Assembly: GCA_017551725.1 (NCBI GenBank) | Contig: JAFZKY010000021.1 | Coordinates: 2,547 to 66,546, forward strand | From: Bacteroidales bacterium | GTDB taxonomy: Bacteria > Bacteroidota > Bacteroidia > Bacteroidales > WCHB1-69 | Direction of reading: 5' to 3' | Length of the DNA stretch: 64,000 bases | Shown: positions 330-16,569 of the stretch, piece by piece | How positions within the stretch are numbered: the stretch's first letter is position 1 | Layout: every line of letters begins with the position of its first letter | Position numbers and translations under genes: made by a program | Notes under the pieces: model-generated | Seen by the model: the letters and a program-made list of their open reading frames with translations, nothing else | The model's database searches: none | Told to the model about the DNA's origin: nothing

Positions 330-737
330 ATGGAGGAAGTTGTCATTTCAACATCGAGAACCGAAAGAGGATTCAGTGCCAGCTGTGAGCTTCTGCCCGG
401 GTGGGTGGTGGCCTATACCGGCAATTTTTCAGGTTTTGTGGAATATGTAAAGGAGAGTGTTGATTTTTATGTGGAGTGCGCCCGAAATGATGGAGAGGAA
501 TATCCTGCTGTGTTCGATGGAGACTATAAATTGTTGTTCAAGATGAACATTCAGAGCTTGTTATACTGCTACGACAAAATCCTGACCCGTGCGGCACTAT
601 CGCGTCTTACGGGTATTAACGAGCGGCAACTCGGACATTATATTTGTGGCAGGAGCAAGCCGCGCAGTGCTCAAAGCGGCAAAATCGTTCGCGCTTTGCA
701 CTCGCTTGGCCAGGAACTGCAATCTGTTTGCGTTTGA
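330..737 (+). CDS. hicB: HicB-like antitoxin with C-terminal HTH
   Basis: 135 aa. N-terminal partial RNase H-like region (GFSASCELLPG...ESVDFY) followed by an Xre-type HTH (ALSRLTGINERQLGHYICGRSKPR). Follows the hicA fragment. Confidence 0.8.
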   Translation: MEEVVISTSRTERGFSASCELLPGWVVAYTGNFSGFVEYVKESVDFYVECARNDGEEYPAVFDGDYKLLFKMNIQSLLYCYDKILTRAALSRLTGINERQLGHYICGRSKPRSAQSGKIVRALHSLGQELQSVCV

Positions 738-801: not shown

Positions 802-2085
802 TTAGAACAACGCGCTCACCTTCTCGATGATAGTGTCGGAGGGTAGGTCCGGCGTGAGGACGAGGTCGGGCTCCTTGAACACGAAACCCTTGCTCATGGC
901 AGTGAGTGAGCCGCCGCCGGTGCAGTTGAGCATGATGTACTCTTCTTTTTTCACCACCCCTTCCTTGACAGCCTGGGCCAGTGCGCTCACGGCCACGCAG
1001 GCGGCGGGCAGGAGGTCGTAGCCCTCCAGGTTCCGGAACTGCATCATCCAGTACATGATGTCGTTGTTGTCGGCCAGGAAGGCATCGCCGTGGCTGTCGT
1101 TCAGCGTGTCGAAGAGGCCGCCGGCGAGACTGTAGGGCGGCTTGCGGTTGGAGAGCACCTTGGCGAGGATGATCTCGGCCTGTCGGCGTCCATCCTCGGC
1201 GGGCAGGTCGGGCAGGGCGCGGGAATGGGCTTTCCAAGCGTCGTAAATCAGGGTGAAGGGTTTGTTCTGGGCCACATACACACGCATGTTGTTCTCGCCG
1301 AAACGACCGTCGGCGGCCAGCCGGCAGGCGTTCTCCCAGGCGGCGATGGCGCCCGTGCCGGAACCTACGGCCTGGAAATAGGCGTCGGGGATGCGTCCCA
1401 TCTTCTCCACACAGCTGAGGACCGTGGTGCCCATGCCGTCGCGGCGCGCCACGTTCTTGGCTCCGCCTTCCAGGAAATAACGATGGTCTTCCGCCAGCTT
1501 CTCGCCCAGCGTGATGGCATCATAGTAGTCGTAGCCATGGGGCACGGCGATGAGCTTCACGCATTTGTGCAGGGGCTTGCTGAACCAGAGGTCGTGGAGG
1601 TTGTCCACAGGCACGCAAATCACGATGGGAATGCGGTTGTCGGAGCACACCTGCGCGAAGGCGCGGGCCGTGTTGCCGGCCGACTGCACCACCAGTATGC
1701 GGTTCTCGTTACGGGGAATGCGGGCCAGCACCGAGAAGGCTTCCGTCTCCTTGAAGGAGCAGGTGCGCATCTTGGCCCCGATCTTCGGACACCAGCCGGA
1801 GAAAGTGATGTAGAGGTTGTCCAGCCCCAGATGCTTGGCCAGCCCTTTGGACTTGTAGGAGACAGGGGCGCAGGAATTTTTCAGCGTGCGGTTGATGGGC
1901 ATCCAGTCGGCGTAGCGGTAGATGCCGTCCAGTTCCTCACGGGGGGTGAACTGGGTGTTCGCATATACGGCGCGTATCAGTGAAGGTGTTTTGCCTTCGG
2001 GGTCGCCTAATGTCCAACCCTTGTCTTCAAAAACACGTCCGGTTTCTACATTTGTAAGCTGGTATTTGGTGGGTTTGAATCGCAT
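802..2085 (-). CDS. Cysteate synthase (threonine synthase-like, PLP fold II), CapA-like
   Basis: TCSFKETEA PLP-lysine motif, SAGNTARAF, EGGAKNVARRDGMGT, YFQAVGSGTG and LSNRKPPY motifs typical of cysteate synthases. Last gene of the operon containing the SulA-like gene. Confidence 0.88.
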   Translation of the reverse strand: MRFKPTKYQLTNVETGRVFEDKGWTLGDPEGKTPSLIRAVYANTQFTPREELDGIYRYADWMPINRTLKNSCAPVSYKSKGLAKHLGLDNLYITFSGWCPKIGAKMRTCSFKETEAFSVLARIPRNENRILVVQSAGNTARAFAQVCSDNRIPIVICVPVDNLHDLWFSKPLHKCVKLIAVPHGYDYYDAITLGEKLAEDHRYFLEGGAKNVARRDGMGTTVLSCVEKMGRIPDAYFQAVGSGTGAIAAWENACRLAADGRFGENNMRVYVAQNKPFTLIYDAWKAHSRALPDLPAEDGRRQAEIILAKVLSNRKPPYSLAGGLFDTLNDSHGDAFLADNNDIMYWMMQFRNLEGYDLLPAACVAVSALAQAVKEGVVKKEEYIMLNCTGGGSLTAMSKGFVFKEPDLVLTPDLPSDTIIEKVSALF

Positions 2086-2118
2086 AATGGTGTTTTTTAA
2101 GGTGATAAAATGTTTTGA

Positions 2119-3948
2119 TTATTGATTTTTTTCTGAAACAGGTGAGGATTGTGCGTCGAGAATCTCGGCGATGTCGCGCACAGGCCGGTCGGCGTAGCGG
2201 CTGAAGGTGGCCATGCACAGCGGACAGGCGGTGGCGATGGCGTCGGCGCGACTGGTGTAGAGGTTCTCTAAGGCGGCACGCGTCATCTCCTCGCGTTGTG
2301 CGAAGCTGAGGGTGAGGGAGCCCAACGACCCGCCGCAGCAGATGCTCTCCGCGCGGTTCTTCTCGGCTTCCGCAATGCCCGCCGACTTGCCGATGAGCTT
2401 CCTCGGCTCGTCGTAGATGCCGCATCCGCGTCCCAACTCGCAGGGGTCATGGAACACGTAGCAGAGGTCGCTCTTTTCCAGATGCAGTTTTTCCTGTTGT
2501 AATAATTCGTTGAAATATTGGCTGTAATGCACCACACGGATACCCTTGAGCTGGTATTCCTCTTTGAACATCTTGTAGCAGATGGGACAGCTCACCAGCA
2601 GGGTGTCGGCGCCGCTGCCCAATATGATTTCCTCGTTTTTGTGTACGATTTCCTTGGCCGCCTCGAAACGTCCGGCTGTCAGCATGGGCCGTCCGCAGCA
2701 GAGGCCGCCTTCACGGTCCATCCACACGTAGTCCACGTCCGCTTTCTTGAGGATGGACTCCACGCTCTGTCCAATGGCGGGGGTGAGTTGGCTCATGCAA
2801 CCGCTGAAATAGAGCACCTTGGCGCCGGAAGAGGCTTCCACCATAGGTTGTACGTCGATGTTCGAGTAGTCGGGCGACAGGTTGTAGTGTCGGCGCGAGC
2901 GCTCTATGATGCGCAATTGAGGGCCTTCCACCTGCACTTGGCACACGGTGTGGCATTTGCCGCAGAGGAGGCATTTGTCGGAAATCTCCTCAATGCGTTT
3001 TTCGTTGCCTCTCCGCATCTGGCGGGTGAGATAGACGGTGCAGTCTTTAAGGTTGCCTCGGTTGACGCTCATCGGGCAGGCATCGATGCAGACGCCGCAG
3101 TTGGGACAGCTATATACCTGCAGTTTGGCGAACCCTTTGCGCGAATCGCGAATTTTGATTCCGGCGTTGCGCAGCGGTATCAGCATCATCTCCGCGGGGA
3201 TGTGCATGTAGCGCGTGAAGGGCAGCACGCACATGAAGACGCAGAGGGCGATGGAGTAGGCCCACCACGTGGGGAGCATGTTGAGGTCGTTGCCGAGGAA
3301 CTGCCGGAACAGCCAGTTGGCGGGAATCGTCAGGAAGGAGCCGCCGCTGATGTGGGCGGTGAAACTCTCGGCCAGCAGACGCAACGGGAAGATGGCCCAC
3401 AACGCATACAGACCGATCTGGTTCAGCAGGGAGGGACGTGCCGTGCGCCTCATGCCGAAGAAACGGGAGTGTACCCGCTTGATCATGGCCAGCACGATGC
3501 CGCTGAGCACAACCAGCAGGAAGAAATCCATGAGGAACATGAGCAAGGCACCCTGTATCGTCACATCCCCGACTTCCGCCACAAAATAGTTGAAGAAAAT
3601 GGGGTAGTAAAACATGTGGATGCGCTCGGGCACGAAAAGGAATACTTCGAGATGGCCGAGCACAATGAGCATGAACCAACCGAAGGCGATGCTCGAGTGC
3701 ATGTAGCCTAACAGCTTGTTGCGTTTCCAGAGTTTGACGTGGATAAGACAGTCCTTGAGGATGTCCCAGCAGTTCTTGACGATGATTTTGGGGTTGATGA
3801 GCGAAAGCAGGAACTTGCGCAGATCCTTTTTAGGCAGTTGCCATAATATACGTACCATCCCGAAGAGGCAGTATGACAGCACGAAGACCATTCCGAAGAG
3901 GAAGGGCAGTACAAACGGGTGGAAGCCGGAAGGTATTCTATCGATCAT
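2119..3948 (-). CDS. Membrane-anchored Fe-S oxidoreductase (HdrE/NarI-like TM domain + 2x[4Fe-4S] + two CCG domains; HdrED-like fusion)
   Basis: About 6 hydrophobic helices with histidines in the N-terminal ~250 aa. CPNCGVCIDACP and CLLCGKCHTVCQ ferredoxin motifs. CCG domains GC...CCGRP...CPIC and HDPC...CCGG...CPLC. Confidence 0.85.
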   Translation of the reverse strand: MIDRIPSGFHPFVLPFLFGMVFVLSYCLFGMVRILWQLPKKDLRKFLLSLINPKIIVKNCWDILKDCLIHVKLWKRNKLLGYMHSSIAFGWFMLIVLGHLEVFLFVPERIHMFYYPIFFNYFVAEVGDVTIQGALLMFLMDFFLLVVLSGIVLAMIKRVHSRFFGMRRTARPSLLNQIGLYALWAIFPLRLLAESFTAHISGGSFLTIPANWLFRQFLGNDLNMLPTWWAYSIALCVFMCVLPFTRYMHIPAEMMLIPLRNAGIKIRDSRKGFAKLQVYSCPNCGVCIDACPMSVNRGNLKDCTVYLTRQMRRGNEKRIEEISDKCLLCGKCHTVCQVQVEGPQLRIIERSRRHYNLSPDYSNIDVQPMVEASSGAKVLYFSGCMSQLTPAIGQSVESILKKADVDYVWMDREGGLCCGRPMLTAGRFEAAKEIVHKNEEIILGSGADTLLVSCPICYKMFKEEYQLKGIRVVHYSQYFNELLQQEKLHLEKSDLCYVFHDPCELGRGCGIYDEPRKLIGKSAGIAEAEKNRAESICCGGSLGSLTLSFAQREEMTRAALENLYTSRADAIATACPLCMATFSRYADRPVRDIAEILDAQSSPVSEKNQ

Positions 3949-4258
3949 AAATTCTGTAAAGGGTCAAAATTAGGTGACGTGTGTTGATTCCGCGAGGGCA
4001 CACCATGGTGCATTTGCCGCAGAGCATACAGTTGGATAACATGGGGCGCACATCCTGGTCGCGCTGGATGGCAAGGATGACCTTGCGCAGGCTCATGCCG
4101 CTGAACGGGGCGGCAGTGCAGCTCGCGCTGCAGGAACCGCAGCTCATGCAAATGCGGGCGTCGGGCTCCATCTCGCATAGTTTGCGGAACAGGGTGGTGT
4201 CCACCGTGTCGAGATTGATGGTGGAACTTTTGCTGAGGGAGAATCCAAAATCCATCAT
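3938..4258 (-). CDS. 4Fe-4S dicluster protein (HdrC-like)
   Basis: CMSCGSCSASC and CMLCGKCTMVCPRGI motifs. Overlaps both neighbours, suggesting translational coupling. Confidence 0.85.
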   Translation of the reverse strand: MMDFGFSLSKSSTINLDTVDTTLFRKLCEMEPDARICMSCGSCSASCTAAPFSGMSLRKVILAIQRDQDVRPMLSNCMLCGKCTMVCPRGINTRHLILTLYRIYDR

Positions 4259-5268
4259 GCTTTGGTAAGATAACGGTGAATACTCAGTACGGCGGCGCGG
4301 GCCTCAGCCACGGTCTCCGGCACGGTCTTGGTGCCCGTGCAGGCGCCGGCGTAGAAGATGCCCGGACGGTTCGACTCCATGATGGAATACACGTTGTCGC
4401 GGCTCTTGAGGAAGCCGTCGTCGTCAATGTCGAGGCCGACCATGTTGGCCAGCTCGTTGGTGCGCGGGTTGCACACCATGCCCGACATGAGCACGAGCAG
4501 GTCGAGGGTGACCTTCAGCGGCTTGCCGGTGAGCGTGTCCTCCGCCTTCACTTGCAGGCGGTTGTCGATGGTCTCGCCCACCTCCGACACGCGGCCACGG
4601 ATGAAATGTACACCGAAGTCCCGCTGCGCGTTGATGTAGAAGTCCTCGTATTTTTTGCCGAACAGACGCAGGTCCATATAGAAACAATAAACCTCCGTGT
4701 CGGGGAATATCTCCTTGACCTCGATGGCCTGTTTGATGGCGGTCGTGCAGCACACCTTGGAGCATTGGCTGTTGCCGGCCTTCAGGTCGCGCGAACCAAC
4801 GCAGTGTACGAAGCCCACCGCCTTGGGGTGCTCGGGTATGCGCGCGTCGGCACGCTTGTTGAACCAGGCCTCCAGGTCCGCATTGGTGATGACGTGGTCA
4901 TAGACGCCGTAGCCGTACTCCTCTTTCTTGGCCGCATCAAACAGATGGAAGCCGGAGGCAATGAGGATGGCCTTGGCCACAATGTTGACCCCGTTGTTCA
5001 AAATAACGTTGTAACTGTCACCCAAGGCATTGAGGGAGTTTACCTTGGTTTCCAGAAACACGTTGGCATCCTTGATTTGGTTGGAAAGGTCGTTGAGCAG
5101 CTCGTGTGAGGAGGTCATGTCGGGGAACAGCTTGTGCCATTGGAACACATGGCCGCCGAGATGGTCTTCCTGTTCGATGATGATGGGGTTGTAGCCGAGT
5201 ACGAGGAGTTGCTTGGCCGCCTCCATACCCGCTATTCCGCCACCGATGATTACGATGTTTTCTTTCAT
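4255..5268 (-). CDS. Short heterodisulfide reductase subunit A-like flavoprotein
   Basis: IIGGGIAG FAD-binding motif, EEYGYG, HCVGSRD...CSKVCC cluster motif, FYMDLR and FIRGRVSE of HdrA. Only 337 aa, with no inserted or terminal ferredoxin domains. Confidence 0.88.
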   Translation of the reverse strand: MKENIVIIGGGIAGMEAAKQLLVLGYNPIIIEQEDHLGGHVFQWHKLFPDMTSSHELLNDLSNQIKDANVFLETKVNSLNALGDSYNVILNNGVNIVAKAILIASGFHLFDAAKKEEYGYGVYDHVITNADLEAWFNKRADARIPEHPKAVGFVHCVGSRDLKAGNSQCSKVCCTTAIKQAIEVKEIFPDTEVYCFYMDLRLFGKKYEDFYINAQRDFGVHFIRGRVSEVGETIDNRLQVKAEDTLTGKPLKVTLDLLVLMSGMVCNPRTNELANMVGLDIDDDGFLKSRDNVYSIMESNRPGIFYAGACTGTKTVPETVAEARAAVLSIHRYLTKA

Positions 5269-5272
5269 ATTG

Positions 5273-6343
5273 CTAACAACATTTTATAGATTTGGGAAGT
5301 TCCGGTCGCATAATGTCTTCTTTGTTCAAGCCCAAATATTTGGCTTTTGGGTCGTATTCTACGCCGATTTTGTCTAAGAGAGGTTCCACGGCCACCTGAT
5401 GCAGTTGCAGACCGAGGTCCCAAGGATCATAGCCGAGGATAATGCCGGCCAGTTCCTCGTATGTCAACACGGGGATTCCGTAGCCGTCTTTGCCGTAGGT
5501 CTTGCCCGTCTGCTCGGCGATGACGTATTGCCAGCGGTCGAGGAAGTAGGGGCATCCGGGGCAGTTGGTGATGATGGCATCGGGGTGGAAGGGCTCCATG
5601 GATTCGAATTTCTTCCAGGTGTTGGAAACGCTGTAGCTACGGTTGGCCTTCACGTGGTACTGACGGAATCCGTAGCCGCAGCAGTGGCGCCGCTCTGGGT
5701 AGTCCACCACCTGTCCGCCCCAGCTCTCGATCATGCCGGCCAGCACGTAGGGATACTCCGCACCGCCCACGCCCTTGCTGGGGAACATCTTCGCATAGTG
5801 GCAGCCGATGTGCTCCACGATCTTCAGAGGCTCGCCCGTCTCCTTGTTGACGAGATGGTGTTTGGCCTTGGCGGCAATGGCATTGCGCCAATGGTAGATG
5901 AGGTCGCTGGTGTGTGCCAGATATTTGGGTTTGTTGAACTCCCGTTTGCAGGCTTTCCACAGGTTCTCGCGGATCTTGGCCTCCAGCTCGGGAAACTCGT
6001 GCCAGGTTTCCAAAATCTCGCAATAGTTGCCGAAGGAGGTGATGCAGCTGGGCACGTAGTTCTCGTAGCCGGCCTCCGTCATCAGGGCGAACTGCCGCGC
6101 CACGATGGTCATGACCGTCTCCTGGGGGATGGTGTCGCAGTGGTAGGCGATACCCCCGCAGGTAGTGTGGTGCGGCGTTTCGTAGATGTCCTTGCCCAAC
6201 ACTTTCCGTGTGATTTCCGTGAACATCTTCTCACTGGCGGGGAAGAAATTCTGCCGGATGCAGCTGCGCACGTAGTACCAGTGGTCATCGGGGATTTCCT
6301 TCTGGTAGTCGCTCCATATCTTTTGTTTACCTTCTGTAATCAT
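5273..6343 (-). CDS. Heterodisulfide reductase subunit B-like (CCG domain) protein
   Basis: HIGCHY, RRHCCGYG, NCPGC and IPVLTYEELAG motifs. First CCG domain is divergent (TTCGG...SCITS). Confidence 0.88.
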   Translation of the reverse strand: MITEGKQKIWSDYQKEIPDDHWYYVRSCIRQNFFPASEKMFTEITRKVLGKDIYETPHHTTCGGIAYHCDTIPQETVMTIVARQFALMTEAGYENYVPSCITSFGNYCEILETWHEFPELEAKIRENLWKACKREFNKPKYLAHTSDLIYHWRNAIAAKAKHHLVNKETGEPLKIVEHIGCHYAKMFPSKGVGGAEYPYVLAGMIESWGGQVVDYPERRHCCGYGFRQYHVKANRSYSVSNTWKKFESMEPFHPDAIITNCPGCPYFLDRWQYVIAEQTGKTYGKDGYGIPVLTYEELAGIILGYDPWDLGLQLHQVAVEPLLDKIGVEYDPKAKYLGLNKEDIMRPELPKSIKCC

Positions 6344-6349
6344 AACGGA

Positions 6350-7063
6350 TTAATGGTTAAAATGTTTGTCCGAGCAGTACTCGAACGCCTGTCTTTCGTA
6401 TTCTTCAATATCCATGCCCATCTCTTCGGCCTTGGCTTTGGAGTACTCCTCCACGATGCGGATGCGTTCGGTGCCGCCAGTCACGTCGAAGATGGCCTTG
6501 AGTTCGTCGAGCGACTCCTGCGGTATCTTCCGCAGAATGCCGGGCCCGTCGCCCATGTAGTTGGCACCCTGGCGTGCGAGGCTCTGCTCGAGATGCTCGG
6601 TATGCCATTTCCAGACGGGGCCGGATTCCTTATGGTCTTCCCATTTGAACGATTTGGGATGGACGCAGTAGCCGTAGTTGAGGATGTTGCCCGTCATGAT
6701 GTGAGTGAGGGGCAGCAGCTGGCGGCCCTTCTCCGATTCGGTGAAGTAGCCGAGGCGTGCGCTGAGGTCGCGCAGGGCGATGATGACGAGGCCGGGGCCG
6801 TTCTTGCGCGGGCAGCGCGTCACACAGCTCATGCACTCGCCGCAGTACCAGATGGTGTCCGACTTCAGCAGCTCCTCAATCTGCTTGTCGTCGCGCGTCT
6901 GCACGATGCTGACGATTTTCCGGGGATCGTATTTGTAGAACTCTGCTGCAGGGCACACCGCCGTGCAGGTCCCGCAGTTGATGCAGGTGTGGAATCCCTC
7001 TTTGAAACGGTAGTCCTTGCAGAGTTCCTCGAACAAGTTCTTGGGTTTGTTGTCGTTGTTCAT
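6350..7063 (-). CDS. Heterodisulfide reductase subunit C-like Fe-S protein
   Basis: CINCGTCTAVCP and IWYCGECMSCVTRCP motifs, immediately upstream of the HdrB-like gene. Confidence 0.88.
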   Translation of the reverse strand: MNNDNKPKNLFEELCKDYRFKEGFHTCINCGTCTAVCPAAEFYKYDPRKIVSIVQTRDDKQIEELLKSDTIWYCGECMSCVTRCPRKNGPGLVIIALRDLSARLGYFTESEKGRQLLPLTHIMTGNILNYGYCVHPKSFKWEDHKESGPVWKWHTEHLEQSLARQGANYMGDGPGILRKIPQESLDELKAIFDVTGGTERIRIVEEYSKAKAEEMGMDIEEYERQAFEYCSDKHFNH

Positions 7064-7861
7064 TTACATGGGTTTTATTCGTTTGGCGATTTTGGCACAA
7101 AGGCCCGGAAAGAAACGTTTAACATAGACCATGATGAGTTCCTTGCGCCCCACGAGCACCTCGCGTTTGCTCTTGTCGATGGCCTTCTGGATTATTTTCG
7201 CGGCCTGGTCGGGGGAAAGGCCTCCGCCTTGGCCGGGATCCATCTTGCCGTGCGGCTGACCGCCCTTGTCCAAGGCATGGAGCGAGATGTTGGTTCTCAC
7301 TCTGCCCGGGCATACGATGGTGACATGGATGTTGCGGTCCGAATATTCGGCTTGCAGTGTCTCGAAGAAGCCGTAGAGGGCGTGCTTGGAGGAACAGTAC
7401 CCGCAGCGCAACGGGAATCCGAACTTTCCGGCGATGGAGGTGGTCACGGCGATGTGGCCGCCGCCCGCCGCCAGCATTTTCGGCAGCACGGCCTTGGCGA
7501 TGGCTACTGGTGCGAAGTAGTTGATTTCCATGAGCTTGCGAATCATCCCCATGGATGTGTCTTCCACCGTGGTGCGCTGGCTGATGCCGGCGTTGCAGTA
7601 GAGAATATCGATGCGGTTGAACGCACTCCAGGCCTCTTCAGCCAACGCCTCGATGCCGTCCGGATGCTGCAAATCGTAGGGCAGGGCGTGGACTTTCGCG
7701 CCAAGGTCACGGCATTTGGCCACCACCGGCTCCAGCTCTTCCGCTGTCAAGGCCGTCAGGACCAGGGAGGCGTGCTCCGCGGCATAGCGGTAGGCACACG
7801 CCTCTCCGATGCCGGAGGAACCACCCGTGATCCAGATTACTTGTCCGTTTCGATCTGTCAT
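7064..7861 (-). CDS. SDR-family oxidoreductase, probable 3-dehydrocapnine reductase (CapC-like)
   Basis: ITGGSSGIG, NAGISQR and YCSSK SDR motifs. Directly downstream of the SulA-like gene. The specific function is inferred from context. Confidence 0.75.
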   Translation of the reverse strand: MTDRNGQVIWITGGSSGIGEACAYRYAAEHASLVLTALTAEELEPVVAKCRDLGAKVHALPYDLQHPDGIEALAEEAWSAFNRIDILYCNAGISQRTTVEDTSMGMIRKLMEINYFAPVAIAKAVLPKMLAAGGGHIAVTTSIAGKFGFPLRCGYCSSKHALYGFFETLQAEYSDRNIHVTIVCPGRVRTNISLHALDKGGQPHGKMDPGQGGGLSPDQAAKIIQKAIDKSKREVLVGRKELIMVYVKRFFPGLCAKIAKRIKPM

Positions 7862-7888
7862 GATGTCGGTTTGTGTTGTATAATGCCG

Positions 7889-9148
7889 TTAAAGCGCCAT
7901 GTTGGGAATCTCGTGGTCGTAGTCGCCCTTGGCCAGACGCTCCTTGATGTCGCGGAAGGCATCCAGGGTGCGGTCCACATCCTCGATGCTGTGCGCGGCG
8001 GTGGGGATGACGCGGAAGATCAACATTCCGGGAGGAATGACCGGGTAGGTGACGATGGAACAGAAGATGTTGTAGTTCTCGCGCAGATCGACGGCGATGT
8101 TGGTGGCCTGGTTCACGCCGCATTTCAGATGCACGGGCGTGACGCATGCCTCCGCGGGACCGATCTCGTAGCCGAGGTCGCGGAAGCCCTTCTGGAGCCG
8201 GCGGGTAACCTCCCACAGGTGGGCACGACGGGCATCGCCTTCGGCACTGCGGATGATCTCCAGACGTTTCAGACAGCCTTCCACGATGGGCATGGGCAGC
8301 GATTTGGCGTACATCTGCGAACGCATGTTGTATTTCAGATAGTCGATGATGGCCTTCTCCGTGGCGACGAAACCGCCGATGGTGGCCATGGACTTGGCGT
8401 AGGCGCCGATGTAGATGTCGATGTCGTCCATCACGCCGAAATGCTCGGAGGTGCCGCGTCCGTTGGGACCCATCACGCCGAAGCCGTGTGCATCGTCGAT
8501 GAGGATGCGGAATTTGTATTTTTTCTTCAGGGCAGCAATCTGGTCCAGGATGCCCAGCGCGCCCGTCATGCCGAAGACGCCTTCGGTGATGAGCAATACG
8601 CCGCCGCCGTTCTGGTCAGCCACCTCGGTGGCATGGGCCAACACGCGGTCGCAGTCCTCGATGTTGTTATGGCGGAATTTGTACTTGTGGCCCAGATGCA
8701 GACGGATGCCGTCCAGCAGGCAGGCGTGCGCTTCCGCGTCATACACGATGACGTCGTGGCGGTTCACCAAGGAGTCGATGGTGGAAAAGATGCCCTGATA
8801 GCCGAAGTTGAACTCGAAGGCGGCCTCTTTGTGCTCGAAGTCGGCGAGTTCACGCTCCAACTTTTCATGCAGAGCCGTTTGCCCCGTCATCATGCGGCTC
8901 CCCATCGGGTAGGCCATGCCCCAGCGGGCCGCAGCCTCCGCGTCGGTCTTTCTGACCTCCGGGTGGTTGGCGAGACCCAGATAGTTGTTGAGGCTCCAGC
9001 AGAGCACTTCCTTGCCGTTGAAACGCATGTGCGGACCCAATTCGCCTTCCAGTTTCGGAAAGGTGAAATAACCTTCCGCTTTATCACGGTATTGTCCGAT
9101 AGGACCGCCCGTGGATTGTTTGATTCTTTCGAAAATGTCTTTTTGCAT
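7889..9148 (-). CDS. Alpha-oxoamine synthase family PLP enzyme, cysteate acyl-ACP transferase (SulA/CapB-like)
   Basis: N-terminus DIFERI..GGPIGQY...GYF.FPKLEGE.GPHM.F.GK..L.WSLNNYLGLANHPEVRK as recalled for Alistipes SulA. DDAHGFG and AKS PLP motifs. Shares an operon with cysteate synthase. Confidence 0.85.
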   Translation of the reverse strand: MQKDIFERIKQSTGGPIGQYRDKAEGYFTFPKLEGELGPHMRFNGKEVLCWSLNNYLGLANHPEVRKTDAEAAARWGMAYPMGSRMMTGQTALHEKLERELADFEHKEAAFEFNFGYQGIFSTIDSLVNRHDVIVYDAEAHACLLDGIRLHLGHKYKFRHNNIEDCDRVLAHATEVADQNGGGVLLITEGVFGMTGALGILDQIAALKKKYKFRILIDDAHGFGVMGPNGRGTSEHFGVMDDIDIYIGAYAKSMATIGGFVATEKAIIDYLKYNMRSQMYAKSLPMPIVEGCLKRLEIIRSAEGDARRAHLWEVTRRLQKGFRDLGYEIGPAEACVTPVHLKCGVNQATNIAVDLRENYNIFCSIVTYPVIPPGMLIFRVIPTAAHSIEDVDRTLDAFRDIKERLAKGDYDHEIPNMAL

Positions 9149-9171
9149 AATGGTATAAATGTGATTGTTAA

Positions 9172-10257
9172 TTAATTGTCGGATTTGCTGACCTTCTCGC
9201 GGGACACTAAGCCCATGGCCTTGAACAGGAATTTGGGCAGGGGCTTCTCCCGTTTCCGGTTGATGAGGTCGATGAACCAGCCCAGCTTCTTGATGACGGG
9301 AATCTTGTGGGTCTCCACAAATTCTATCAGGGTGCCGTCCGGGTCTTCAATGTAGGTGAAATGGCCGGAGGCATCGCCCATGTCGAAGACCTCGTTGTCG
9401 GGACAGCTGTCCACGGTGAACGGATGGCCTTTGGAGGCGCAGAACTCGCCCAGTTTTTTCATGTTGGTGATGTCGAAGCAGAGTTGGATGAACCCCGGGT
9501 CGCCCCAGTAACGTCCTTCGTAGATTTTACGAGGCGTACGGTCTAATGCCTGCACCAGTTCGATGCTGCCTTTCGGCATAAGCTCGGACAACGGTCCTTT
9601 GGGCTTGGAGGGGTCTTTGAGCAGCACGCGGCGGTACTGTTCGCCGGAGCCGGGCATGATCTGCCAGTCGTCAAAGGTCCCCGTCTTGTCGTATATCACT
9701 TGTTCGTAGCCCAGCACTTCACGGTAAAAACGCACGGAGGCGTCCATGTCGGTAACCCCGATGACGGCACCTGATACGCCGCCGGTAAGACAGTTCTGCT
9801 CAATGAAGATGTCGGGCTGCTCCACCACCTGGAGGCAGTTGCCGTACAAGTCACGGAGATATAGACAGGGCGTGCCGTCGGGCAGGGCGGATACTGCACC
9901 GCAATCCTGCCATTTCGAGGAGGCGTATTGGTAAAAGGCTTTCACGTCGCGGCATTTGATCCTGGCGGCGAAGATGCCCAGGTCGCCCACGGCAATGTCA
10001 AAGGCCACGGGCACGGGCGTGCGCTCGCTGTATTGCCAGATCTCCAGCCCGCCGCCGCCTTGCAGGTTCACGGCGATGCAGGCATGCCGCTTCTGCGGCT
10101 GGTTGCCGGTGTAGGGAAGCATTCGCTCCGCCACGGTGTCGTCTTCCAAAATTTTGATGTCCACACCGAACATGTCGATATACCAATCCCATGATTTTCG
10201 CATGTTCACCGTGCCAACACCAATTTGTTGAATGCCAGAAATAAAAAAATTATCCAT
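9172..10257 (-). CDS. VOC (glyoxalase-like) superfamily protein, duplicated domains
   Basis: GIQQIGVG...WY..MFG, DLYGNCLQVV, FYREVLGY and YIEDPDGTLIEFVE VOC motifs. First gene of the operon. Confidence 0.8.
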   Translation of the reverse strand: MDNFFISGIQQIGVGTVNMRKSWDWYIDMFGVDIKILEDDTVAERMLPYTGNQPQKRHACIAVNLQGGGGLEIWQYSERTPVPVAFDIAVGDLGIFAARIKCRDVKAFYQYASSKWQDCGAVSALPDGTPCLYLRDLYGNCLQVVEQPDIFIEQNCLTGGVSGAVIGVTDMDASVRFYREVLGYEQVIYDKTGTFDDWQIMPGSGEQYRRVLLKDPSKPKGPLSELMPKGSIELVQALDRTPRKIYEGRYWGDPGFIQLCFDITNMKKLGEFCASKGHPFTVDSCPDNEVFDMGDASGHFTYIEDPDGTLIEFVETHKIPVIKKLGWFIDLINRKREKPLPKFLFKAMGLVSREKVSKSDN

Positions 10258-10289: not shown

Positions 10290-10297
10290 CAAAGATA
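10290..10297 (-). promoter_or_regulatory. Bacteroidota sigmaA -7 element (TATCTTTG) for the VOC-sulfonolipid-Hdr operon
   Basis: Reverse complement of caaagata matches TAnnTTTG, ~33 nt upstream of the VOC start codon. Confidence 0.65.
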
Positions 10298-12692: not shown

Positions 12693-13892
12693 TCATTTTT
12701 TCAGTAATCTCAAAGCCTCCTGCTCGCTTATTTTTTTGCCGTTTTGGAAACCGATGACAAAAGCGTCCGGGAATTTGCGCTTCACCTCGGTGAGGATCTC
12801 GCGGATGGCTGTGTGGGAGGTTTCGTTGCCGGCGGTGTATTTCCAGAGGTTGTTTTCAAAAAAGCGGTCCACGCCGGGCAGGTTGCGGAAACGGCTGTCG
12901 GTGAGGGGGAGTTTTTCCGGCGAGGCCAGGAACTGCACCTTGAAGCGGATGACGTTGCTGTCGGGGACCACCTCGTTGGCGATGGCTTGCAGCTTTTCCG
13001 GTGTCTCCGGCTTGGGCGTGACCGTTCCGGTGGGCACGTTTTCCTTCGGAAGGTCCTCTTTCACGGTCCCAGGTTTCGGGGTGGCGGGCGTGACGGCCTC
13101 GTGCGCGTGCGGCTGGCTGTTGGTGACGGCGGCCAGATAGTCCACGAAGGCGTTGTAGATGCTGGCGGCCTCCTTCTTGCGGTTTTCCGTCGAGGCCAGG
13201 AAGGCTTCGTCGTTTTTGTTGCTCAGGAAGCCCATCTCGATGAGGATGCTGGGCATGGCCACCTTGTAGAGCACCCAGAATCCGGCCTGCTTCACGCCAC
13301 GGTTGACGAGATGTGTGCTGTTGATGAGGTTTTTCTGTACCTTGTCGGCCAGCATGACGGAGTTTTTCAGGTAGGCGGATGAATATAGGGAGAAGAGCAC
13401 GTTGGCTTCCGGCGAGTTGGGGTCGAAGCCGTCGTAGTTGTTCTTGTAGTTCTTCTCTTTCAACATGGCTGCGTTCTCGGCGCGCGCCACCGCCTGGTTG
13501 GCCTCGCTCTTGTGCAGGCCCATCACCCACGTCTCGATGCCATTGCCGATGTGGTCCTCCGAAGCGTTGCAGTGGAACGAGATGAACAAGTCGGCATGTT
13601 CAGAGTTCGCGATCTGCGCCCGGCGGTACAACTCGACGAATACGTCCGTTTTGCGGGTGTAGATCACCTTCACCTCCGGACAATGTTCGCTGATGAGCTT
13701 GCCCACCATGAGGGCTATGTCCAGGCTTACGTCTTTTTCCTTCAGATGGCTGCCCAGACAGCCGGAGTCGTGCCCCCCGTGTCCTGCGTCAATCACCACT
13801 TTGAAGGTCTTCTCCTGCGCCACCATGCTTAGGGGTGAGAAGAGAAAAAGTAAGAGGGCATATACGAATATCTGTTTTTTGAAGTTCATCAT
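12693..13892 (-). CDS. N-acetylmuramoyl-L-alanine amidase (Amidase_3)
   Basis: VVIDAGHGGHD, ADLFISFHCNA and MPSILIEMGFLSN motifs, with a C-terminal SPOR-like region. Confidence 0.93.
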   Translation of the reverse strand: MMNFKKQIFVYALLLFLFSPLSMVAQEKTFKVVIDAGHGGHDSGCLGSHLKEKDVSLDIALMVGKLISEHCPEVKVIYTRKTDVFVELYRRAQIANSEHADLFISFHCNASEDHIGNGIETWVMGLHKSEANQAVARAENAAMLKEKNYKNNYDGFDPNSPEANVLFSLYSSAYLKNSVMLADKVQKNLINSTHLVNRGVKQAGFWVLYKVAMPSILIEMGFLSNKNDEAFLASTENRKKEAASIYNAFVDYLAAVTNSQPHAHEAVTPATPKPGTVKEDLPKENVPTGTVTPKPETPEKLQAIANEVVPDSNVIRFKVQFLASPEKLPLTDSRFRNLPGVDRFFENNLWKYTAGNETSHTAIREILTEVKRKFPDAFVIGFQNGKKISEQEALRLLKK

Positions 13893-14016
13893 TTTGAAGA
13901 TTTTGATTATTTTTGCCGATTTTAAAATCGCAAAGGTACTTTATATTGTATTTATTATAACGGGTTTGTCAGAAAAATTATACACAATAGTTTTTTCATA
14001 TTTCGGGAGATTGATT

Positions 14017-16569
14017 ATGCTCTTCATTTTCAGTCTCTTGTCTATGATTTCGACAGCCCAGGGCGTGCGAGGGCGAAGGCCTGTTAGACAAACGCAGGAC
14101 ACGTCGGTTTATTTTCAGCAGCCAGTACGACAGGATTCAATTGTGCGCGATTCCGTCGTCAAGCATCCCAAGCGTATATCCTCCAATGCGGTGAAGTCCA
14201 TCGTCTTCTACAGCGCCAAGGACTCCACCGTCAATGACCTGAACCGCCGCTATACTTATCTCTTCGGGGATGCGGTGGTGAAATACGAAGACTTGGAACT
14301 CCGCGCCGATTACATAGAGATTGATTTCAAAAACAATGAGTTGTATGCTTCCGGCGTGTCCGACAGCAATGGCGTAATACACGGAAGTCCGCTTTTCATC
14401 CAGGGAGAATCCAGATATCGAGCCCACGAGATCAAGTACAATTTTTCCACCCAGAAGGGCAAAATCACGCACGTGATCACCACGCAGGACGAGGGTTTCA
14501 TTCACGGGGAACAGATCAAGAAAATGGGCGACAATGTGGCCTTCCTCAAGGATGGCAAATACACGACCTGTGAGCTGGACCATCCTCATTATGAGATTGA
14601 TTTCACAAAGGCCAAGCTGATCCAGCACGACAAGATCGTCATCGGGCCGGCCTACCTGAGCTTCACGGGGGTGCCCACGCCGCTGGCGGTGCCGTTCGGT
14701 TTCTTCCCGCTGGACAAGGGCCGACGCTCCGGCTTTGTGATGCCCTCTTTCGGACAGTCCACCAACCTTGGCTTCTACCTTCAGGATTTAGGCTATTATT
14801 TCGCCATCAGCGACAACCTCGACCTGCTCCTCGGGGCCGATGTCTATACCCGAGGCAGCTGGGGCATCAAGGCGAAGTCCAACTACGTGTTCCGCTACAT
14901 CTGTTCCGGCAACGTGCATCTGGAGTTTGCCCAGACCCGCACCGGCGACAAGCTGGATTCCTCGTACCGTTGTTCCAACAATTTCAAAATCTATTGGGAT
15001 CACAAGCAGGACATCAAATCCCATCCCACCACTCGTTTCAATGCCCATATCGATGTTGTCAGCTCTAATTACGCCAAATACAACATCACTTCGGCACAGG
15101 ATTATCTCTCTAACCAATATACCTCTTCCATCAACGTGTCCACCTCGGCGCGCGACATCTTCTTCGTGGATGCCACGCTTTCCTATTCGCAGAATACGAG
15201 AACGCGGGACGTGAACCTCAAGTTGCCGGATTTGAACATGTCGGTGGTGCAATTTTACCCGTTCCGGAAGAAAAACAAGGCGGGCACGCTGAAATGGTAC
15301 GACAACATTTCGATGAAATGGACTTCCCAGTTCACCGGACAGGTTGACACCTACGACACGCTTTTCCTGAAACCCGAGACGTGGGAGACGCTCAATGTGG
15401 GTATGCGCCATGTCATCCCACTCACCATCCCCATCAAGATTGCGAAGCGCATCAACTGGAACACAACTGCCACGCTGACAGAAAAATGGTATCTGCAGTC
15501 CTATACCCGTGACATGTCTGTTGACACGCTGGATGATATACCCACTGTGAAATACAACCAATATTTCCATCGGGGGTTCAAGATGTTGCACGATGTGAAT
15601 GTCTCTTCGTCGTTCACCACGAAGATATACGTCATGTACAGTTTCAAGAAGGGAGGTTTGCAGGCCATCCGCCACATCATTACTCCAAATTTGAATTTTA
15701 CTTATCGTCCAAACCTCTCTGGTGGCACTACAGCCCGCTACTTCAACCCGATCACGGGCGAGCAGGTCGAATATTCTATGTTCGACAATGCCATCTTCGG
15801 GGGGGTCACGTCGCAGACGCAGGCATTGGCGCAGCTCTCCTTCGGTAACAACGTGGAAATCAAGGTGCGTTCGCGCAAGGACACGATCACGGGTTACAAG
15901 AAGGTGCCGCTGATCGATAACCTGAATGTGAGTATGTACTATAACTTCGCCGCCGACTCGTTGCGCTGGTCAAAACTGACTCTCAATGGTCGGAGCACGC
16001 TCTTCAAGCAACTTTACCTGACCTACAATTTTGCCTTCGACCCATACGTCATCGGGGAGAACGGCAACAGGGTTAACCGCTTCGAAGTCAAGGAGAACCA
16101 CCGTCTGTTCCGCCTGTCGTCCACCGATTTCAGTCTGGCTCTCAATTGGCGGCTGGACCAGAATACCTTCAAATCGAAAAAGAAAAAAGAGGAGGTCAAG
16201 CGTCTGCCCTGGTCTTTGACGTTGAATTACACATTCACCTACGGCATCAATGACAATATATATTATTATATGCGGATGGACACCCTTCTCTACAAGCACA
16301 ACATGGTCCACACCATCAATGTGGTGGGGGATTTCCACATCACCAAGAAATGGCGGGTGGGCTTCACCACGGGGTACGACTTTGTGCAGAAGAAACTCTC
16401 CTACACCTCCATCGACATCCACCGCGACATGCACTGTTGGGAGATGAGCTTCAACTGGGTGCCTTTCGGATACCGCAAGGGATGGGCTTTCCAAGTCAAC
16501 GTCAAGGCTGCGGTGCTCAAGGATGTGCTTAAACTTCCGTTGCATCAGGATTATCGTGATAATCTGTAA
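14017..16569 (+). CDS. lptD: Putative LPS assembly protein LptD (Bacteroidota type)
   Basis: YSAKDS, GKYTTC...PHY, PLAVPFGFFP, beta-barrel C-terminus RDMHCWEMSFNWVPFG. Divergent from the amidase. Start uncertain (TTG at 13966 or ATG at 14017), and the ORF-track start at 13693 overlaps the amidase. Confidence 0.85.
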   Translation: MLFIFSLLSMISTAQGVRGRRPVRQTQDTSVYFQQPVRQDSIVRDSVVKHPKRISSNAVKSIVFYSAKDSTVNDLNRRYTYLFGDAVVKYEDLELRADYIEIDFKNNELYASGVSDSNGVIHGSPLFIQGESRYRAHEIKYNFSTQKGKITHVITTQDEGFIHGEQIKKMGDNVAFLKDGKYTTCELDHPHYEIDFTKAKLIQHDKIVIGPAYLSFTGVPTPLAVPFGFFPLDKGRRSGFVMPSFGQSTNLGFYLQDLGYYFAISDNLDLLLGADVYTRGSWGIKAKSNYVFRYICSGNVHLEFAQTRTGDKLDSSYRCSNNFKIYWDHKQDIKSHPTTRFNAHIDVVSSNYAKYNITSAQDYLSNQYTSSINVSTSARDIFFVDATLSYSQNTRTRDVNLKLPDLNMSVVQFYPFRKKNKAGTLKWYDNISMKWTSQFTGQVDTYDTLFLKPETWETLNVGMRHVIPLTIPIKIAKRINWNTTATLTEKWYLQSYTRDMSVDTLDDIPTVKYNQYFHRGFKMLHDVNVSSSFTTKIYVMYSFKKGGLQAIRHIITPNLNFTYRPNLSGGTTARYFNPITGEQVEYSMFDNAIFGGVTSQTQALAQLSFGNNVEIKVRSRKDTITGYKKVPLIDNLNVSMYYNFAADSLRWSKLTLNGRSTLFKQLYLTYNFAFDPYVIGENGNRVNRFEVKENHRLFRLSSTDFSLALNWRLDQNTFKSKKKKEEVKRLPWSLTLNYTFTYGINDNIYYYMRMDTLLYKHNMVHTINVVGDFHITKKWRVGFTTGYDFVQKKLSYTSIDIHRDMHCWEMSFNWVPFGYRKGWAFQVNVKAAVLKDVLKLPLHQDYRDNL

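Follow-up and report, generated by a model that had tools for sequence, protein, structure and literature searches.

A stretch of DNA of 64,000 nucleotides from an animal-gut Bacteroidales bacterium (assembly GCA_017551725.1, contig JAFZKY010000021.1; hereinafter the window) contains, at positions 802-10257, an operon of nine genes in which genes for the synthesis of capnine-type sulfonolipids enclose a five-gene module related to heterodisulfide reductase (Hdr), referred to below as the block. The analysis of this operon, of its recurrence in other genomes and of the distribution of sulfate-reduction genes suggests that it might be a self-contained route leading from reduced sulfur to a sulfonolipid, and that the block might substitute for CysDN, CysC and CysH in anaerobes lacking these enzymes, a reading to which we give an even chance of being correct. 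The comparisons establish the identities of the genes, the conservation of the block, its repeated fusion with cysteate synthase or SulA, and its phyletic complementarity with genes of the 3'-phosphoadenosine 5'-phosphosulfate (PAPS) reductase family; what we infer in this scheme is that the block forms sulfite and passes electrons to a quinone, as well as its sulfur substrate and a direction taken to be oxidative.

Organization of the Operon

The open reading frame (ORF) listing of the window shows that the region consists of nine ORFs on the minus strand, all with the same orientation. In transcription order, they encode a VOC-superfamily protein (361 amino acids, aa), SulA (419 aa), a short-chain dehydrogenase/reductase (SDR, 265 aa), HdrC (237 aa), HdrB (356 aa), HdrA (337 aa), a small ferredoxin-like protein (106 aa), a membrane HdrD-like protein (609 aa) and cysteate synthase (427 aa). 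Proceeding from VOC to cysteate synthase, the genes are spaced by 23, 27, 0, 6 and 4 nt, then overlap by 4 and 11 nt, the last spacing being 33 nt. These coordinates agree with the original prediction, made from the sequence of the window, of nine co-oriented genes that either overlap or are separated by no more than 33 nt, and the family assignments and gene order given there agree with the Pfam, NCBIfam and PDB matches. The gene order is real and not an assembly artefact, since the HdrB-HdrC-SDR-SulA junctions are bridged by contigs of two other studies (X5 record 15, spanning 5675-8449, and X7 record 22, spanning 5495-8075) and the remainder of the stretch is tiled by further contigs.

The Sulfonolipid Biosynthetic Genes

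Three of the nine genes match the capnine/sulfobacin pathway (CapA/CYS, CapB/SulA/CFAT and CapC/KCR), as this is laid out in the accessible text of PMC13692747 and PMC11211663. The operon differs from the published pathway in that the VOC gene is added and no N-acyltransferase was recognised in it. The SulA/CFAT-type cysteate acyl-ACP (fatty acyl) transferase (7889..9148, minus strand; PF00155, class I/II aminotransferase fold) is predicted to catalyse the first committed step of capnine synthesis. In PDB it is nearest to 7U7H (E = 2e-168) and 28EH, annotated as 'cysteate-C-fatty acyltransferase' (E = 4.5e-164), against only 1e-62 for serine palmitoyltransferase, and on the CFB model for the latter enzyme it scores 281 bits, short of the 640 required. 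The oxoamine synthase of the operon is placed by these comparisons in the SulA/CFAT clade, apart from serine palmitoyltransferase, and its substrate preference is predicted to be that of the clade. The SDR (7064..7861, minus strand; PF00106; NF004825, 230 bits against a cut-off of 215) is a candidate 3-ketocapnine reductase, an activity suggested by its family and by its conserved cluster position, orthologues with 59-63% identity being located within the sulfonolipid clusters of genomes G399, G525 and G014 and of loci L087 and L105.

The last gene of the operon (802..2085, minus strand) encodes a predicted cysteate synthase, which would form L-cysteate from O-phosphoserine and sulfite; it scores 427 bits on TIGR03844 (cut-off 324.9) and aligns end to end, over residues 3-427, with PDB 9K3C, 'cysteate synthase' (E = 4.3e-147). 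This type is referred to as CS1. In the main sample of this work, which consists of 251 genomes drawn from the order to which the window belongs, CS1 (TIGR03844) was found in 59 genomes and SulA (E <= 1e-120) in 192; the SulA from one genome without CS1 matches 28EH at 3.7e-187. A second protein, CS2, is a threonine-synthase-like enzyme dependent on pyridoxal phosphate (for example, L013:15450-16670, minus strand), present in 46 of the 251 genomes. It reaches 120 bits on TIGR03844, against the cut-off of 325, and in PDB it matches threonine synthase (6e-27) better than the cysteate synthase 9K3C (2e-11). CS2 is located within 15 kb of SulA in eight genomes, in five of which the two genes adjoin directly with gaps of 18-115 nt, and only one genome of the main sample harbors CS1 and CS2 together. 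CS2 may be regarded as a candidate non-orthologous cysteate synthase or a related synthase; CS1 and CS2 appear to share only distant similarity and look like unrelated types. Neither of them was found in 93 of the 192 genomes with SulA/CFAT, which may possess a third type of synthase or another route to cysteate.

The VOC-superfamily protein (9172..10257, minus strand; 361 aa) is composed of two modules, with a PF00903 match at residues 165-313 and a weak one in the N-terminal half (E = 0.09). Its gene adjoins SDR, SulA or CS2 in G399, G525, G014, G550, G432, L087, L105 and L114. In G014, G550 and G432 it keeps this company although the block is missing or located elsewhere in the genome, which assigns VOC to the lipid genes, with which it travels, and not to the block. 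A VOC protein of about 360 aa and two modules, with many His, Glu and Asp residues invariant in the alignment, recurs in sulfonolipid clusters, usually beside the SDR; further copies are located at L013:13169-14239, L036:7184-8251, L087:13510-14604 and L114:4935-5996. Its Atlas neighbours are all Bacteroidota clusters of the VOC family, Pfam gave nothing specific, and the accessible text of the sulfonolipid pathway papers does not describe its function.

Distribution of the Block and Its Linkage with Lipid Genes

HdrB-like proteins were found in 91 of the 251 genomes. HdrB alone was rejected as a marker of the block: since paralogous loci consisting of HdrC and HdrB only exist (L006, L009, L012, L018 and L020), all the 106 HdrB places were checked for the presence of HdrA and of the membrane subunit and reclassified. 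These paralogous loci, flanked by small repeated proteins and devoid of HdrA and of the membrane subunit, encode an HdrB 61-65% identical to that of the window and look like a different system. The block was recognised in 84 genomes; four have the paralogue only and three are limited by contig ends, the resulting range being 84-87. The 84 include four on partial evidence, namely two genus-mates of the window genome with the block split over two loci, one genome with the block over two small contigs, and one with a block cut at a contig end in which HdrA is present. In a phylum-wide draw of 301 genomes, an HdrB match was found in five: the window genome (G000), one genome of the same order, and three with weak matches (28-29% identity). 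This draw held few genomes of the order and is uninformative for co-occurrence; in it, the block is nearly absent outside the order. A second sample of 80 loci, 65 of which with the block, is biased towards relatives of the window; its carriers include Candidatus Cryptobacteroides, Bacteroidales metagenome-assembled genomes (MAGs) from rumen and gut, Alistipes, Rikenella, Odoribacter, Prolixibacteraceae and Gaoshiqia hydrogeniformans.

A distance of no more than 15 kb between the block and CS1, CS2 or SulA was considered as linkage; in the main sample this is the case in at least eight genomes belonging to six families and showing at least five gene orders, a lower bound given that 150 of the 196 SulA matches were listed, and the number expected by chance is about 1.1-1.6. 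The arrangements are VOC-SulA-SDR-block-CS1 in the window genome, block-CS1 in G018 and G459, block-CS2 in G343, SulA-CS2-block in G442, block-SulA in G471, and SulA-CS2-SDR-VOC-HdrC-Fd-HdrD-HdrB-HdrA (Fd, ferredoxin), with a rearranged block, in G399 and G525. In the second sample, 11 of the 65 block loci are linked, eight as block-CS1, two as block-SulA-CS2-SDR-VOC, an additional order, and one with VOC adjoining a block whose genes are rearranged. No other family is found next to the block as often as cysteate synthase (15 of 78 block loci), and the block may stand directly beside either the CS1 or the CS2 type. We give weight to this choice of either synthase and to the diversity of the gene orders. 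The survey of gene neighbourhoods suggested along with the original prediction has therefore found the co-location to recur in both samples.

The cluster of the window is of foreign origin. The HdrB of the window shares 81% and 76% identity with its counterparts from genomes of family f7, and about 60% with those of its own genus. The LptD encoded on the same contig, 3.4 kb away (13693-16569), is 63-75% identical to that of its own genus and 36% identical to that of f7. Since HdrB is close to f7 and LptD is close to its own genus, the block-CS1 unit was acquired horizontally and then joined to VOC-SulA-SDR. In its stead, the genus-mates have CS2-SulA, and their block is split. A joint transfer of block and synthase fits a functional pair.

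Complementarity with Sulfate Reduction

The presence of the block was compared with that of PF01507, the PAPS-reductase family, which covers both CysH and CysD and was found in 199 of the 251 genomes. CS1 or CS2 is present in 104 genomes; of these, the 24 without PF01507 have the block in 21 cases and the 80 with PF01507 in 20 (Fisher test, 5e-8). In the sample as a whole, five genomes whose sole PF01507 match is weak were counted as negative, and the value becomes 5e-7 if they are counted otherwise. When a single genome per family was taken (66 families), the median p was 1e-5 and the worst 0.002. Either PF01507 or the block is present in 101 of the 104 genomes, the remaining ones being G432, G457 and G507, and the same holds true for 189 of the 192 SulA genomes. 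Of the 57 PF01507-negative genomes, those with SulA carry the block in 26 cases out of 29, those without SulA in 0 out of 28 (3e-13). No such association is seen where cysteate synthase is missing (block in 5/33 PF01507-negative and 41/114 PF01507-positive genomes). An association that is conditional in this way argues against a simple effect of habitat or lineage. The anticorrelation with sulfate activation and reduction, which had been put forward as a check of the original prediction, is thus seen, by the PF01507 test, in sulfonolipid genomes and not elsewhere.

Single genomes illustrate the pattern. In five of the genomes with fused clusters (G000, G018, G459, G399 and G442), no siroheme NIR_SIR was found, and PF01507 is present in G459 only, in a frame of CysD length. 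Two Alistipes MAGs possess the block, CS1 and SulA without PF01507; two Odoribacter genomes possess the block, CS1, SulA and PF01507. G410 has, in this order (L029:7252-12805), genes for SulA, a CysH-type PAPS reductase of 235 aa, DUF5395, a PF03601 membrane protein and CS2. The CysDN-CysC-CysH route would have the same role as the one proposed for the block, i.e., the provision of sulfite to cysteate synthase, and in G410 its PAPS reductase occupies the place of the block; the proteins are unrelated, the sulfur derives from sulfate, and the two systems are phyletically complementary in sulfonolipid genomes.

Siroheme NIR_SIR is present in 21 of the 251 genomes, and 173 genomes, 149 of them with SulA, have PF01507 without it. 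The sulfate-to-sulfite route of the order may accordingly feed mainly sulfonate lipids and not sulfide assimilation. The siroheme sulfite reductase was also considered as the enzyme replaced by the block and was discarded, the two showing no anticorrelation (an HdrB match in 10 of the 21 genomes with NIR_SIR vs 81 of the 230 without it).

The Five Hdr-like Subunits and Their Relatives

The HdrC-like subunit (6350..7063, minus strand; Fer4 families), similar to sHdrC1, has two [4Fe-4S] motifs (cysteines 27/30/33/37 and 74/77/80/84); it matches the HdrC model below the cut-off (E = 7.5e-22) and the sHdrC1 proteins of true loci of sHdr, the Hdr-like complex of sulfur oxidisers, at 1e-21 to 1e-26. 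The HdrB-like subunit (5273..6343, minus strand; PF02754, CCG domain) is predicted to be catalytic and aligns over its full length with methanogen HdrB (9SFI/5ODC). Its C-terminal CCG site retains five Cys out of five, and its N-terminal site three out of five (C28, C62 and C100, with T61 and S103 at the others). The same degenerate N-terminal pattern is shared by 6/6 sHdrB1 sequences, unlike 5/5 sHdrB2; the reference sequences come from five true sHdr loci and, for B1, also from the soluble variant L077, and the B1/B2 definition itself derives from these loci.

The HdrA-like flavoprotein (4255..5268, minus strand; Pyr_redox_2 and NCBIfam HdrA families) is short, with 337 aa, flavin adenine dinucleotide and one [4Fe-4S] cluster being predicted. 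Its residues 4-329 align with residues 3-335 of PDB 6TJR (349 aa; E = 1.4e-58), the CSKxCC motif being kept; we take 6TJR to be the HdrA-like component of the Hyphomicrobium denitrificans sHdr. With the 650-aa HdrA of methanogens, similarity is confined to the core (residues 94-335 of the window protein), and scores on the HdrA models are 184-240 bits against cut-offs of 1100-1400. The small 2x[4Fe-4S] ferredoxin-like subunit (3938..4258, minus strand; 106 aa; Fer4 families) occupies the position of sHdrC2, has cluster cysteines 37/40/43/47 and 77/80/83/87, matches sHdrC2 at 1e-7 to 1e-9, and invariably separates HdrA from the membrane subunit.

The membrane HdrD/DsrK-like subunit (2119..3948, minus strand; 609 aa; PF02754 twice and Fer4), occupies the position of sHdrB2. 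Hydrophobic helices, about five in number, are located in its residues 1-250, and it further has 2x[4Fe-4S] and two CCG motifs, both of them complete. It matches the TfrB, LdhH, GlpC and DsrK models below their cut-offs (DsrK, 47.7 vs 400 bits), and in an alignment of 23 sequences H70, H84, H249 and all the cluster cysteines are invariant. Residues 1-265 matched no Pfam family, and in PDB no useful sequence match was obtained beyond the Fe-S/CCG part; according to a language-model comparison (score 0.91), to be taken as a lead only, the N-terminal part is nearest to clusters of Nitrate_red_gam (NarI/HdrE type). We propose that this subunit links the block to menaquinone.

Sequence comparison points to sHdr as the closest relative of the block. 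sHdr has a short HdrA without ferredoxin or MvhD-binding domains, as does the window, and combines a degenerate-site HdrB1 with a complete-site HdrB2, to which the HdrB and the 609-aa protein of the window correspond. The order C1-B1-A-hyp-C2-B2 of true sHdr loci (L102, L107, L108, L110 and L116) is paralleled in the window by C-B-A-C2like-B2like. The sHdr proteins are soluble and include 'hyp', whereas the block is without 'hyp' and its B2 equivalent is fused to a ferredoxin and to a five-helix membrane domain; the sHdr order and solubility are thus not found in it. The block is best described as a membrane-anchored relative of sHdr, which falls outside sHdr as defined because the 'hyp' gene and the carrier proteins are missing. 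Moreover, the role of sHdr is dissimilatory, the one proposed for the block is biosynthetic, and the hosts of the latter are strictly anaerobic Bacteroidales. Sulfite is the proposed product of both, for the block on the grounds of homology, context and phyletic pattern. As far as the accessible part of PMC12345210 goes, sHdr occurs mainly in Proteobacteria. In the Bacteroidota sHdr locus L118, C2 and B2 are fused. A soluble five-gene arrangement, HdrC-HdrB-HdrA-HdrC2-HdrB2, without 'hyp' or membrane domain, is present at L077:7928-12572 in a MAG recorded as Phormidium sp.; subunits A, B and C of this variant are much nearer to the Bacteroidales block (1e-58 to 1e-94) than true sHdr subunits are, and it is possibly an intermediate form.

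Other Hdr systems are more distant. Methanogen HdrABC has an HdrA of about 650 aa with extra Fe-S and thioredoxin-like domains, which are not those of the window protein. The membrane-bound HdrDE of Methanosarcina and DsrMK(JOP), the latter known from sulfate reducers and sulfur oxidisers, likewise combine a membrane domain with an HdrD/DsrK-like module bearing two CCG motifs; in them, however, the NarI-type di-haem b subunit is separate and has four His ligands, whereas the window has a single fused polypeptide with three invariant His. Unlike HdrDE and DsrMK, the membrane subunit of the window is always accompanied by A, B and C subunits of the sHdr type.

Proposed Mechanism and Alternative Explanations

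According to the proposed mechanism, the block would oxidise sulfane-level sulfur (persulfide or polysulfide deriving from sulfide or cysteine) to sulfite at CCG-type iron-sulfur sites, and the electrons would pass through the ferredoxin-like subunits to the membrane domain and to menaquinone. Cysteate synthase, encoded directly downstream, would join the sulfite to O-phosphoserine, SulA would link an acyl chain with the cysteate, leaving the SDR to reduce the keto intermediate. MenA is present in the window genome. The standard potentials of sulfite/sulfide, menaquinone and fumarate/succinate are about -116, -74 and +30 mV, respectively, so that the oxidation would be feasible when the synthase draws off sulfite. 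Homology with sHdr leads us to favour oxidation over other chemistries. A broader statement, for which our confidence falls somewhat short of even, is that strictly anaerobic Bacteroidales, including the sulfonolipid-producing gut genus Alistipes, might use a quinone-linked enzyme derived from sHdr in an assimilatory 'reverse' step, oxidising sulfane sulfur from sulfide or cysteine to sulfite solely for sulfonate lipids, without oxygen or sulfate activation, and that this step might be the main control point for the output of immunologically active sulfonolipids in animal guts.

Several observations weigh against the sulfite-supply reading. Most blocks are located apart from lipid genes (76-79 of 84-87 genomes, among the matches listed, and 54 of the 65 second-sample loci); the original prediction had named a module usually unlinked from sulfonolipid genes as a finding that would count against it, and taken literally this is what is seen in about nine blocks out of ten. 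Moreover, the block coexists with PF01507 in 62 SulA genomes, and 44 block-bearing SulA genomes are without CS1 or CS2; therefore, the block is not only a stand-in for CysH feeding CS1 or CS2. Genome relatedness inflates the Fisher values, and the families are not fully independent. The window genome is 81% complete, its own lack of CysH being weak evidence, while its genus-mates G353 and G487, both 99% complete, are also without CysH. Among the five fused-cluster genomes, DsrE was found in none and TusA in one, a GcvH-family gene is single-copy and unlinked in all five, with no dedicated LbpA, and neither these carriers nor any sulfur-transferase are found among the conserved neighbours of the block. 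Since these carrier proteins are absent, the hand-over of the substrate must differ from that of sHdr. No lipoate ligase is linked to the block in the neighbour comparison, which included no search aimed at lipoate ligases. The cytochrome b of fumarate reductase is present in three of the five genomes and was not found in G000 and G399. Lastly, a contig from a metatranscriptome library (X20 record 4), belonging to a relative with 90% identity, spans HdrA-HdrB-HdrC-SDR-SulA; DNA may be in the library, the contig does not prove a single transcript, and regions lacking RNA cover have no bearing on the matter. The supply of sulfite by the Hdr module, as originally predicted, is thus favoured by the recurrent linkage and by the conditional complementarity, and is weakened by the unlinked majority, by the genomes with both routes, by those with the block and no known cysteate synthase, by the missing sHdr carriers, and by a chemistry drawn from homology only.

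The same supply role could also be played by a reductive chemistry, in which the S-S bond of thiosulfate, S-sulfocysteine or another R-S-SO3- compound would be cleaved into sulfite and a thiol or sulfide, with electrons coming from menaquinol and/or from a low-potential donor via HdrA. This is a serious rival, even if we hold it to be unlikely. Two-electron S-S cleavage is established for HdrB/HdrD proteins of the CCG type, to which the block is related by homology, and the evidence from context and phyletic distribution suits this chemistry equally; the lack of DsrE, TusA and dedicated LbpA favours a small-molecule substrate, and 5 of the 78 loci have a SulP-type permease close to the block. 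However, the system to whose type HdrA and HdrB specifically belong, sHdr, is known to act oxidatively, genes for the handling of thiosulfate are not conserved in the neighbourhood of the block, and menaquinol alone could not drive the cleavage of thiosulfate, because the couple thiosulfate/(sulfide + sulfite) lies at about -400 mV.

If the block consumed sulfite instead of producing it, acting as a siroheme-independent sulfite reductase or detoxifier, either as a safety valve or for assimilation, the SulA genomes with both the block and PF01507 would find an explanation, and a missing sulfite reductase is conceivable in the 173 genomes with PF01507 and no NIR_SIR. We judge such a role to be improbable: the lack of anticorrelation between the block and NIR_SIR speaks against it, the pattern found in PF01507-negative genomes with and without SulA (26/29 vs 0/28) is left unexplained, and a consumer whose genes immediately precede that of cysteate synthase would take sulfite away from this enzyme. 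There is likewise only a slim chance that the block is a general complex for electron transfer or energy conservation, brought next to lipid genes by shared ancestry, by habitat or by hitch-hiking on transferred islands. Such a complex would agree with the fact that most blocks stand alone, among neighbours that are unrelated and not conserved, with the presence of CCG proteins also in lactate, glycolate, glycerol-3-phosphate and succinate oxidoreductases, and with the horizontal acquisition of the cluster of the window. It is hardly compatible with fusions in at least five gene orders, six families and two synthase families, with an association with PF01507 loss that is confined to genomes with cysteate synthase or SulA, or with the occurrence of only three weak matches outside the order in the phylum-wide draw.

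Novelty and Significance

Among the open texts searched, no paper was found joining Hdr-like genes to sulfonolipid or cysteate synthesis in bacteria; supplements (e.g., those of PMC11525784 and PMC9304779) may hold gene-neighbourhood tables. The matches listed for cysteate synthase together with heterodisulfide concern archaea (methanogens and Methanoperedens). In their accessible text, the published accounts of the sulfonolipid pathway name neither a source of sulfite for anaerobes nor Hdr genes, and the word 'sulfite' does not occur in Radka 2022. This agrees with the expectation of the original prediction that the link between Hdr and sulfonolipids had received no functional description. 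What we propose as new is a complex derived from sHdr with a new architecture, new hosts and a biosynthetic role.

According to the accessible parts of PMC5591296 and PMC11525784, the sulfonolipids produced by Alistipes and Odoribacter are under study as gut lipids that act on the host. The five-gene candidate makes the origin of sulfite in anaerobic gut producers of sulfonolipids directly testable. Should the sulfite-supply reading be true, the sHdr family would extend from dissimilatory sulfur oxidation in Proteobacteria that are mostly aerobic to biosynthesis in strict anaerobes, and would gain a membrane-anchored form without the lipoate-carrier system. Moreover, there would be a possible explanation of why 173 of the 251 genomes of the order have PAPS-reductase-family genes without siroheme sulfite reductase: their sulfite may be made as an end product destined for lipid synthesis and not as an intermediate.

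Neighbouring Genes and Promoter-like Motif

Apart from the lipid genes, some neighbours recur beside the block without being universal: a LuxR-type response regulator (9 loci), a SulP/STAS permease and, immediately upstream, a MarR regulator (5 loci each); examples are L002:8477-8926, L014:11331-11975 and L015:16014-17702. Conserved sulfur-related accessory genes were sought beside the block in the 78 loci and none was retained save the SulP permease. The response regulators, MarR, GATase and ABC transporters near the block probably reflect local synteny.

In the window, a convergent ORF of 135 aa (330-737, plus strand), matching no Pfam family, is located downstream of cysteate synthase. On the other side of the operon, the motif TATCTTTG (10290..10297, minus strand), recognised by reading the sequence, lies 33 nt upstream of the VOC start codon (10297-10290 as read on that strand) and corresponds to TAnnTTTG, which we take to be the -7 promoter consensus of Bacteroidota. 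A sigma-70 promoter scan of the window was uninformative, its model being unsuited to Bacteroidota. The single TAnnTTTG promoter of the original prediction is therefore found as a motif, which does not prove promoter activity and is consistent with TATCTTTG marking the promoter of the operon. The upstream neighbour of VOC is an NlpC/P60 gene (10378-11172), 120 nt distant.

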